Part shown: one piece after another, positions 46,753 to 51,077 of the stretch | Position numbering within the stretch: position 1 is the stretch's first letter | Layout of the letters: every line of letters begins with the position of its first letter | Sequence record: PZ445526.1 | Strand: one strand, 5' to 3' | Source: a phage | Length of the DNA stretch: 64,000 bases | The notes under the pieces: generated by a model | The model's database searches: none | What the model saw: the letters and a program-made list of their open reading frames with translations, nothing else | What the model was told of the DNA's origin: nothing | Made by a program: the position numbers and the translations under genes

Positions 46753-46969
46753 ATTGTTTTTCCGTTAAAACAGTAATATCGTAGTAACAGTCAGAAGAAG
46801 TTTTAACTGTGGAAATTTTATTATCAAAATACTCACGAGTCATTTTATGAGTATAGTATTTTTTACCATAAATGGTAATAGGCTGTTCTGGTCCTGGAAC
46901 TTCTAACTCACTTGGGTTAGGAAGTGTAAAAAGAACAACGCCAGAAGTATCTTTAAATCGTAAAATCAT
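46706..46969 (-). CDS. nrdA.2: Hypothetical protein (nrdA.2 by position)
   Basis: Track start 46981 is TTG; first ATG at 46969 gives 87 aa; start choice uncertain. Confidence 0.5.
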
Positions 46970-46989
46970 ATATCCTCGCAATAATAAAA

Positions 46990-47850
46990 TTACACCGCCA
47001 TCTTTCCTTTAATAGGAGGGTGTGATTCATAGTTGTTAAGAACGAAATCTTTAGGCCTAAGTTTAAGAACATATTTTAATTGTTCTTTAGTAGAAAGATA
47101 TCGGAATTTATAAGGTAGACCACTTATTACCAGCTCACAAAGCTCTTTAGGTTCACGCCTCAAAATTTCTTTACATTGTTCTACGTGATTCATATAGATA
47201 TGAGTATTACCACCAGAAAATATCAAATCTCCCGGAATAAGATTACACATCTTAGCTACAATATGAACTAACGTAGCATATGATGCAATATTAAATGGAA
47301 GACCGAGGAAAACATCTACCGAACGTTGATACCACTGCAAATCCAAATAGCCATTACGCACATTAAACTGATAGAACATATGACAAGGTGGTAATGCCAT
47401 CTGCTTAAGTTCTGCCGGATTCCACGCAGAAACAATTTGACGCCTATCATTTGGCAGTTTTTTAATACGATCAATAACTTCTATAATTTGGTCTACACCA
47501 CCAAAATCACGCCACTGTTTTCCATAAATTGGACCAAGTTCACCGCTATGGTATCCTAAATCTTTTGCTTGATTTTCGTAATTTTCATCCCAAACTGTTT
47601 TGCCTTGGATTAACGAATCATGTTGAATTAATCGCAAATCATTGACATTTGTGCTTCCCGATAAAAACCATATTAGCTCAGCAATGCAAGCTTTCCAGGC
47701 GAGCTTCTTAGTTGTTACCGCAGGAAAACCTTTGGTTAAATCCCAACGCAATTTAGTACCGAACAAAGCAATTGTTCCTGTGCCTGTTCGGTCATCGGTT
47801 TCATAACCATTTTCAAGGATGTTTTTAATTAAATCTTGGTATTGTTTCAT
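46990..47850 (-). CDS. td: Thymidylate synthase (uninterrupted)
   Basis: 286-aa continuous ORF with active-site PPCHMFYQF; no intron. Confidence 0.93.
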
Positions 47851-47865
47851 TTAACACCTATATAA

Positions 47866-48213
47866 TCAATACGGTTTAGCATCAAATTTTCTTTCAATTT
47901 CAGGCGTAAAATATAATTCTTTACCACGTTTGGAAAAGCGACCAATAATATGATAATTATTCTCATCAAACGTGATATTACCAATATCCATAGCTTTCAA
48001 CCAAATATCGATATTTCTATCCAGCTTTATGTCAAAATTCCAATACGGAGAAATATTACCGAAAATACTGCAAGCGGATTCAGTGAAACAACTGCTATAA
48101 ATCTTGTCTTTAGGAACTACTAATTGATAGACACCTTTAATAAACTGAGGACCTTGCCATTTTGGCTGTTTCACGTCTTTTTCTAATAAAATAGGGTAAT
48201 AATTAAAATTCAT
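47866..48213 (-). CDS. Hypothetical protein inserted between frd and td
   Basis: Track ORF begins at GTG 48225; first ATG at 48213 gives 115 aa; no recognisable motif. Confidence 0.5.
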   Translation of the reverse strand: MNFNYYPILLEKDVKQPKWQGPQFIKGVYQLVVPKDKIYSSCFTESACSIFGNISPYWNFDIKLDRNIDIWLKAMDIGNITFDENNYHIIGRFSKRGKELYFTPEIERKFDAKPY

Positions 48214-48233
48214 ATTTTCCGCCACGCGTTATT

Positions 48234-49060
<827 letters not shown>

Positions 49061-49070
49061 ATTATTTTCC

Positions 49071-49313
49071 TTAAACAGACTTTTTCACAATTTTCCAATC
49101 AGCTTTAAACTGTTCAACGTCAGAATGGTAAATCCAGAATCCTGCGCTTTCTCCGTCTTCATAAAGAGGACATCCATCACATTCATCTTCCCACCCCATA
49201 TCACGTAAAAGGTGTTCAGCTTTTTCAACAAGCTCAGAATCTTTACCGATGATATTAAAATACCATTTACCTCTAACTTCTGAATCTTTGATGCTTTGGC
49301 GTTGTAATCTCAT
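49071..49313 (-). CDS. Hypothetical protein
   Basis: 80-aa ORF; sigma70-like early promoter upstream. Confidence 0.6.
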   Translation of the reverse strand: MRLQRQSIKDSEVRGKWYFNIIGKDSELVEKAEHLLRDMGWEDECDGCPLYEDGESAGFWIYHSDVEQFKADWKIVKKSV

Positions 49314-49338
49314 TTTATTCTCCTCAGTTGATAGGGTA

Positions 49339-49367
49339 ATAGTATCACACTACTACCCTGTTGTAAA
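49339..49367 (-). promoter_or_regulatory. Sigma70-like early promoter (-35 TTTACA, 17 bp, TGn, -10 TACTAT)
   Basis: Minus-strand motif directly after the stop codon of the 126-aa ORF, upstream of the 80-aa ORF. Confidence 0.5.
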
Positions 49368-49748
49368 CTACTTTTTGAAAGTTTTTCGCAAAAGTTCAAT
49401 GATTTCATCTACATTGTTTTCATCTACAATGCAGTGAATTTTTGTTACGCCAGAAACCGGGTCTTTGACTTCGTCTTTTTCAGAAGTCGGTTCTTTATAC
49501 TCGCGAAAACAATGAAATTCGTCTTCGCAAATTTCTAAAAGTCTATCTTTGAGGTAAAAATGCTTTCCATTTGCGCATTCAATGTGTTTTACTGCTTTAT
49601 ATCCGTTAGCGACGGAAACTTCTTTAACTTCAAACCATCCGCCATTATCTCGAATGGCTTTAACTATTGATGAATTAGAACGTGGGCTATAATTAATAAA
49701 TGTATCAATAAGTCTTGGAACAAGTTCATACTTTTTACCGGTATACAT
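49368..49748 (-). CDS. Hypothetical protein
   Basis: 126-aa ORF with ATG start; hairpin upstream. Confidence 0.6.
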   Translation of the reverse strand: MYTGKKYELVPRLIDTFINYSPRSNSSIVKAIRDNGGWFEVKEVSVANGYKAVKHIECANGKHFYLKDRLLEICEDEFHCFREYKEPTSEKDEVKDPVSGVTKIHCIVDENNVDEIIELLRKTFKK

Positions 49749-50168: not shown

Positions 50169-51077
50169 TTAAAGGTCATTCAAAAGGTCATCCAGGTCCG
50201 TGTCATCAGCACTAGATGAACTGCCAGAGCTTGAGCTCATAAAATCATCTTCAGTTTTTGTATTGAAGTCATCAACATTGAATGCATCCAAATCATCAGC
50301 AACTTTATCAGCTTTCTTAGCGGCAGTTGCTGCGGCACCGCCCATCACAGCAGTTCCCATAACTTGACTGAACTTAGTGCTCAGTTCTTCAAATGATTTG
50401 AATTTATCTTTAGAAGTCATTTCAGAAAGGTCAACCATTTGTTCGAACAGTTCTTTCTGGAAAGATTTATCGTCAATGTTTGGAATCGCAGATTGATTCA
50501 GGAATTTAGATTCGTCGTAGTTACTAAATCCAGAAACTTGTTTAACTTTCAGTACAAAGTTAGCACCTTCCCACGGACAAGTTACATCAACCGGAGTTTC
50601 ACCCATTTCAACATCAACTGCAATCATTGCATTGATTTTATCCCAGATTTTCTTACCGAAACGGTATTTAAATACTTTACCTTCATTTTCTGGAGCAGCT
50701 GGGTCTTTTACTACAAGAATGTTAGCCCAGTAAGAAGTTTTACGTTTAACAAGACTGTACTCTTTATTGTCAGTGTTGTACAGATCATTTTTACTGATGT
50801 ATTGACATACTGGACAAGAATCGTAATCACCGTGGGTAGATGAGCAATTTTCGATATACCATTTACCGTTTTTCTTGAAACCGTGATTTACAAGAATTGC
50901 AAATGGTGCCTGTTCATCATTTTTAGACGGAAGAAAACGAATTACTGCTTGACCGTTACCCGCATTATCGAGTTTCAGTTTCCACTCGCCTTTATCTTCA
51001 GAAGAAAAACCACCTTTATTTCCAGCCAGTTTAGCCATTTGTGCAGCGAGTTCAGCAGTAGATTTACGTTTAAACAT
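50169..51077 (-). CDS. 32: Single-stranded DNA-binding protein gp32
   Basis: 302-aa [27 protein letters not shown]...; Zn-binding Cys/His; acidic Ser-rich C-terminus; operator sequence upstream. Confidence 0.95.

Follow-up and report, generated by a model that had tools for sequence, protein, structure and literature searches.

A small gene of the minus strand lies between the genes of dihydrofolate reductase (frd) and thymidylate synthase (td) in the phage DNA analysed here (sequence record PZ445526.1; the whole stretch of 64,000 nucleotides (nt) is called the window below). We refer to this open reading frame (ORF) of the window as X, to its paralogue as Y, and to a gene of 68 amino acids (aa) that belongs to PHROG 9550, a group of unknown function, as Z. 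An earlier note, made from the letters alone, had drawn attention to an ORF of 115-119 aa between frd and td in a nucleotide-metabolism operon, and both observations hold. X is situated inside the frd-td-nrdA operon and takes up 47866..48213 when read from the ATG at 48213..48211 to the TGA at 47868..47866 (115 aa), or 47866..48225 in the GTG-started form given in the ORF listing of the window (119 aa). Its upstream neighbour is frd (48234..48815, 193 aa), its downstream neighbour is an intronless td (46990..47850, 286 aa), both on the minus strand as well, and the 15-nt spacer between X and td (47851..47865) contains a good Shine-Dalgarno sequence (SD) for td, AGGTG at 47859..47855. The X protein has a mass of 13.7 kDa and an isoelectric point of 8.5.

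The start codon had been considered ambiguous in the earlier note, the SD of the ATG being weak. The SD is indeed weak, and X of the window is preceded by an 18-nt spacer, whereas in most genera it overlaps the frd stop; the ambiguity, on the other hand, disappears when relatives are taken into account. Orthologues are annotated at the same length, a coding sequence of 348 nt and 115 aa being given in all relatives inspected; the closest divergent orthologue, on the Logan contig L027, starts with MNFNYY from an ATG that overlaps the frd stop; and in phage REP1 the loss of 1 nt between the two candidate start codons has shifted the GTG out of frame. Judging from these comparisons, the true start is almost certainly ATG 48213, and the upstream in-frame GTG (48223..48225, minus strand), which lacks an upstream SD, is probably not used.

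Pairwise ratios of nonsynonymous to synonymous substitution rates (dN/dS, Nei-Gojobori), calculated for X orthologues spanning 63-98% identity, were 0.06-0.11 among close Tequatrovirus orthologues and 0.09-0.13 for X versus two orthologues 63-66% identical to it, and 11 of the 14 substitutions among four close orthologues were synonymous. Since dN/dS is as low as 0.06-0.13, the substitution pattern shows that X is a genuine protein-coding gene under strong purifying selection and is not decaying. With its distribution, described below, also considered, we are highly confident in regarding X as a true accessory gene, conserved, linked to frd and absent from T4.

A homologue of X was found by tblastn in 580 phage records. 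About 363 of them, at 90% identity or more, include T2, RB18, RB68, RB32 and RB51 (where the gene is named RB32ORF229c), AR1 and ime09, while the remaining 217, at less than 60% identity, are phages of Klebsiella, Enterobacter, Edwardsiella, Salmonella, Citrobacter and Erwinia as well as other phages. The profile search suggested in the earlier note placed X in PHROG 1928, annotated as being of unknown function (E 1.9e-35, residues 8-115 on profile positions 2-125 of 126). The same profile matches Y (E 1.5e-37) and distant members, so that all X and Y members fall there, and the two are paralogous according to hhalign (probability 99.4%, E 5e-21). A hidden Markov model search of 1.84 billion representative proteins returned only 50 matches at E<=1e-3; the genuine ones are all 95-148 aa long, with no fused or extra domains, and three matches of 345-445 aa were rejected as spurious, being PEGA/CarboxypepD_reg repeat proteins that fit the G-x-Y-x-hydrophobic strand pattern. 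X is a member of a small family restricted to T4-like phages, and no second copy of the family is present elsewhere in the 64-kb window. The statement of the earlier note that X has no recognisable motif proved correct as far as Pfam is concerned, where nothing was matched even at E<=10, PHROG 1928 being the match that does exist; when 61 family members were scanned against Pfam, only scattered single weak matches and no consistent family resulted, and neither NCBIfam nor PADLOC yielded a match.

As an object, X is already known: hundreds of GenBank records list it as a hypothetical protein, it is catalogued under phrog_1928 without a known function, and no publication on X, RB32ORF229c or PHROG 1928 was found in the searchable literature. 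The hypothetical proteins teqsoen_200 (QHR64077), ar1_242 of AR1 and RB32ORF229c of RB51 are 96-99% identical to X, are of equal length and share the frd-X-td position. In this sense X is an ordinary conserved hypothetical gene, one of many small phage genes conserved without a function, and by itself it matters little. Two kinds of labels attached to this ORF are not supported and are corrected by the present analysis, namely "putative homing endonuclease" (Bas38, AlbertHofmann), to which we return below, and "dihydrofolate reductase" (HMD-9, JLBYU22, APTC-EC-2A). The latter was rejected, as X gives no match to DHFR_1 (PF00186) and the true dihydrofolate reductase is the product of the adjacent 193-aa gene.

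As to the position of the gene, the X homologue starts at or overlaps the frd stop in Kanagawavirus PEi20, Jiaodavirus JD18, Gelderlandvirus Melville, Moonvirus Moon, Kagamiyamavirus EcS1 and Marfavirus F48; it stands directly 3' of frd in 12 IMG/VR contigs and two Logan contigs too, and very distant members adjoin the DHFR gene in phages of Providencia, Morganella, Proteus, Erwinia and Serratia. Altogether, a PHROG 1928 gene was immediately downstream of frd in all 25+ loci examined, which represent more than a dozen genera; as a rule the stop and start codons overlap. The window has the same adjacency, frd ending at 48234 and X starting at 48213. Such an unbroken association with the DHFR gene is unusual among phage hypothetical genes and makes PHROG 1928 a plausible candidate for an accessory component that is still missing from the picture of nucleotide metabolism in phages.

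The interval between frd and td may hold more than X. In most genomes from which the above loci were taken X is followed directly by Y (113-123 aa), and in some of them Z is found just before td. Y belongs to the same family, has the same predicted fold and occupies the same interval (PEi20 ORF-252, Melville gp166, Moon253, EcS1 ORF254), and shares with X the motifs LLxxDxxQKxW, HG(I/L)Y and GRFxKxGxE(I/L)xF; unlike X, it carries an insertion of about 19 residues (ALVIxGxxPTIxxYKRxP) after the conserved Trp, takes the second place in the interval and is lacking in Tequatrovirus, the window included. Five states of the interval were encountered: X, Y and Z together in some lineages; X and Y in PEi20, Melville, Moon, EcS1 and L014; X alone in the window, in most Tequatrovirus (T2, RB18, RB32 and others) and in JD18-like Klebsiella phages; Z alone in Sf21 and JS10; and nothing in T4, F1 and Mosigvirus JS09. 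When the states were counted in a collection of 50,697 phage records, X was present in about 355-363 and Z in place of X in 137, whereas the direct frd/td junction of the T4 type was detected in 32, the full-length matches listed being mostly T4 records (the 46-nt probe used for this count can match in full only on a contiguous junction). The T4 junction is a minority state, and X is the majority state in Tequatrovirus.

These counts change the meaning of an "extra" ORF, the term used in the earlier note. It is apt relative to T4: as the note stated, frd and td are directly adjacent there, frd (145109..145690 in NC_000866) overlapping by 4 nt with td, which ends at 145112, and no ORF lies between them; tblastn revealed no X homologue in the 136-148 kb segment of T4. 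As a frame it fails, since comparison of the junction among related phages shows that most T4-like relatives possess X and that T4 is the outlier. In other words, T4 is a poor reference for the frd-td operon, its overlapping junction being that of a minority and most of its relatives having one to three small genes at this place. The td gene of T4 is also split by the I-TevI intron, and the idea that X is missing only when td has an intron was considered and rejected: phages with both X and the intron exist (PST, G10400, FL34, ESCO58), hence the presence of X is not tied to the td intron.

Alignment of the window with T4 shows how the two states are related. The sequences are identical up to GTATATAAATGAAA and again from AAATGAAACAATACC onwards; exactly 387 bp of the window are missing from T4, and an 11-nt direct repeat, AAATGAAA(T/C)AA, bounds this interval. 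Both copies of the repeat are on the minus strand. The left one, AAATGAAATAA (48229..48239), spans the frd stop (48236..48234) and a relic mini-ORF of two codons, ATGAAATAA (48229..48237), which overlaps this stop; the right one, AAATGAAACAA (47842..47852), lies 387 bp away and contains the td start codon (47850..47848), reading ATGAAACAA. The mini-ORF ATGAAATAA resembles the td start ATGAAACAA, which in T4 occupies this position. Most gene boundaries of the frd-td cassette are stop/start overlaps of the A-ATG-A type, and the repeat consists of the junction motif of the frd stop and the td start. Recombination between the two repeat copies, or boundaries, removes or brings in a whole gene and restores the translational coupling of frd and td. 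As to the direction of the event, the wide and position-fixed distribution of X argues for its being ancient at the frd-td site and having been lost in T4.

In an alignment of 61 sequences of the X family W19, G91, K95 and G97 are invariant, and L9, G27, Y29, F93 and F102 are at least 90% conserved; the core formed by W19, G27-x-Y29, G91-(R92)-F93-x-K95-x-G97 and F102 is fully present in X of the window. Structure prediction, which had been proposed as a check in the earlier note, was performed with AlphaFold2 and gave a compact beta-barrel, with a mean predicted local distance difference test score (pLDDT) of 78.9 when 28 sequences were used and of 90.9, at a predicted template modelling score of 0.84, when 61 were used, the topology being the same. 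The model consists of strands 6-12 and 27-34, short strands 38-40, 48-50 and 62-64, a helix 68-76, a strand 80-82 and a long hairpin (86-96 and 99-104) that bears the GRFxKxG motif. X is accordingly predicted to form a compact beta-barrel, the only helix of which is placed between strands 3 and 4; the order of the elements is that of the oligonucleotide/oligosaccharide-binding (OB) fold, and we tentatively call the modelled topology OB-like. No catalytic motif is recognisable in X, and sequence and profile searches against PDB gave nothing better than E 0.19, a chance match to a transthyretin-like protein.

Tight gene linkage commonly accompanies physical or functional partnership. It is because of the tight linkage of X to frd that we prefer to see X as an accessory or adaptor protein of the deoxynucleotide-synthesising machinery. 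X would act by binding and not as an enzyme, being a dispensable partner whose synthesis would parallel that of Frd and Td; it may contact the enzymes that synthesise deoxynucleoside triphosphates and/or single-stranded nucleic acid, in the latter case possibly through its conserved aromatic and basic residues. That X is a binding adaptor co-expressed with Frd and Td is put forward here tentatively, as a possibility that falls short of being probable. A bolder version can also be formulated, in which X and Y (PHROG 1928) would form a so far overlooked OB-like subunit of the deoxynucleotide-synthesising complex of the T4 type. Dihydrofolate reductase, thymidylate synthase or both would be bound by X alone or by a heterodimer of X and Y and, at replication forks, tethered to gp32 or single-stranded DNA; T4 would have lost the subunit. 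We regard this version as speculative and improbable; if true, the loss from T4 would explain why decades of T4 biochemistry missed X. The account in its entirety, i.e., a coding frd-linked gene, an indel bounded by repeats and a predicted accessory role in binding, seems to us on balance probable, with moderate confidence.

Several points weigh against this account. The relic td-like start ATGAAATAA at the frd stop would fit an insertion of X into a T4-type junction as well. Moreover, X of the T4-like Logan contigs L027 (4001..4345) and L028 (4013..4357) is 63-66% identical to X of the window, and their Frd only 48%. X of these contigs being far closer to that of the window than their Frd is, the comparison hints at a lateral transfer of X involving such a lineage, which leaves room for its re-acquisition in Tequatrovirus. 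(In other genera X, at 26-44% identity, diverges from the window at least as much as Frd, at 43-55%.) With regard to function, no reports of interactions, expression or phenotypes for X were found in the literature; T4 and Mosigvirus manage without X, which means that any role of it in nucleotide synthesis is non-essential; and its presence or absence among close relatives is equally typical of accessory genes engaged in interaction with the host or in anti-defence.

The last point leads to the strongest competitor of the adaptor role, namely that X is an anti-defence or host-takeover protein which inhibits a host factor, has no link to folate or thymidylate and occupies a permissive slot in an early operon. 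X is small, orphan and phage-restricted, three alternative alleles (X, Z and none) segregate among closely related Tequatrovirus genomes, outright loss is possible, as in T4 and Mosigvirus, and the possible signal of lateral transfer points the same way. However, in every locus examined X is found immediately after frd, usually with a stop/start overlap and in more than a dozen genera, which would be unusual for rapidly shuffled counter-defence cargo. The lack of a PADLOC match also speaks against it, although PADLOC models cover defence and not anti-defence proteins. We consider this explanation rather unlikely, yet one to be taken seriously.

According to another explanation, X is an OB-fold regulator that binds single-stranded nucleic acid, for example affecting the translation or stability of the frd-td-nrd messenger RNA or serving as an auxiliary single-stranded-DNA-binding factor. 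OB-fold binding domains (SSB, PriB, RPA14/32, Teb1, HIN) are among the known systems placed closest to X. None of the structural scores reaches the thresholds usually taken as significant, X resembles neither gp32 (hhalign probability of 1.2% for the X family) nor any PDB chain in sequence or profile, and the net charge of X is only about +2; we hold such a role to be improbable.

Still less credit can be given to the proposal, in line with the annotation in the BASEL phages Bas38 and AlbertHofmann, that X is a mobile element, either a free-standing homing endonuclease or a remnant of one. The proposal draws on the product name "putative homing endonuclease" in MZ501052 and MZ501047, on the presence/absence polymorphism with its flanking direct repeat and on a neighbourhood that is rich in homing endonucleases (I-TevI, mobE and segG in T4). 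Yet no GIY-YIG, HNH, LAGLIDADG, His-Cys, PD-(D/E)xK, EDxHD or other nuclease family is matched by X at Pfam E<=10, none is consistently matched by the 61 members and none by X in NCBIfam; with 115 aa X does not reach the length of the homing endonucleases that are annotated in this region of T4 (I-TevI, 245 aa; MobE, 141 aa); and a predicted beta-barrel fold, a position after frd that is fixed in every locus examined and purifying selection are all at odds with it. The missing nuclease motif effectively refutes this reading, which we hold to be very improbable. Finally, that X is a spurious ORF, a non-coding spacer open by chance, might be suggested by its weak SD and by chance antisense ORFs of comparable length in the AT-rich window (e.g., 134 aa opposite gene 32), but the probability is negligible in view of dN/dS of 0.06-0.13, a frame and motifs kept across genera down to 26% identity and a confident AlphaFold2 model, and we consider this reading ruled out by the conservation pattern.

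Returning to the expression of X, a scan of 46900..49400 revealed neither an excess of sigma-70 promoters nor an intrinsic terminator. There is no T4 late-promoter box near X, the nearest TATAAATA being about 3 kb away. The possibility that the X segment is a known RNA element was rejected, as the Rfam search gave only sub-threshold noise at E<=1. Most simply, X would be a part of the early/middle frd-td-nrdA transcript.

The downstream flank of X may differ in origin from X itself. The Td protein of the window is 98-99% identical to the T4 Td exons, in spite of the td of the window being intronless, while frd and X resemble those of phages of the teqsoen/REP1 type, whose Td is only 85-89% identical. 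A T4-like td beside teqsoen/REP1-like frd and X suggests that recombination took place between X and td and that the window is a mosaic; the best match to the 8-kb neighbourhood among phage records is about 96%, with none higher. The X-td spacer varies as well: it is 30-33 nt shorter in the window than in teqsoen and AugustSocin, two of the three relatives aligned, where the additional segment, AGCTTCATAAAATGTATTATAATTTATATA, contains a TATAAT-like box, and the segment is absent from the window and REP1. By its sequence this segment is promoter-like. In the record of phage Lutter a "promoter" feature is listed beside the X homologue, at a position that may differ from that of the AGCTTCATAAAATGTATTATAATTTATATA segment.

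In the window the operon, of the T4 nucleotide-metabolism type, runs on the minus strand in the order gene 32 (50169..51077), frd.2-like and frd.1 ORFs, an 81-aa ORF, frd, X, td, nrdA.2 and nrdA.1, nrdA. Small genes of this kind are familiar from T4, whose frd.1, frd.2, frd.3, nrdA.1 and nrdA.2 are, like X, short, dispensable, of unknown function, co-transcribed with nucleotide-metabolism genes and variable in presence; they are unrelated to X and, in contrast to it, have Pfam families (FRD2, Phage_FRD3, DUF5417, DUF4326). Opposite gene 32 there is an ORF of 134 aa (50439..50843, plus strand), which is presumably due to chance; its occurrence in an AT-rich genome means that the length of an ORF alone is no proof of coding. 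The 81-aa ORF upstream of frd (48815..49060, minus strand), the stop of which overlaps the frd start (ATGA), belongs to PHROG 3183, a group of unknown function, and has no counterpart in the frd.1-frd interval of T4, which makes it a second gene of the operon that is absent from T4.
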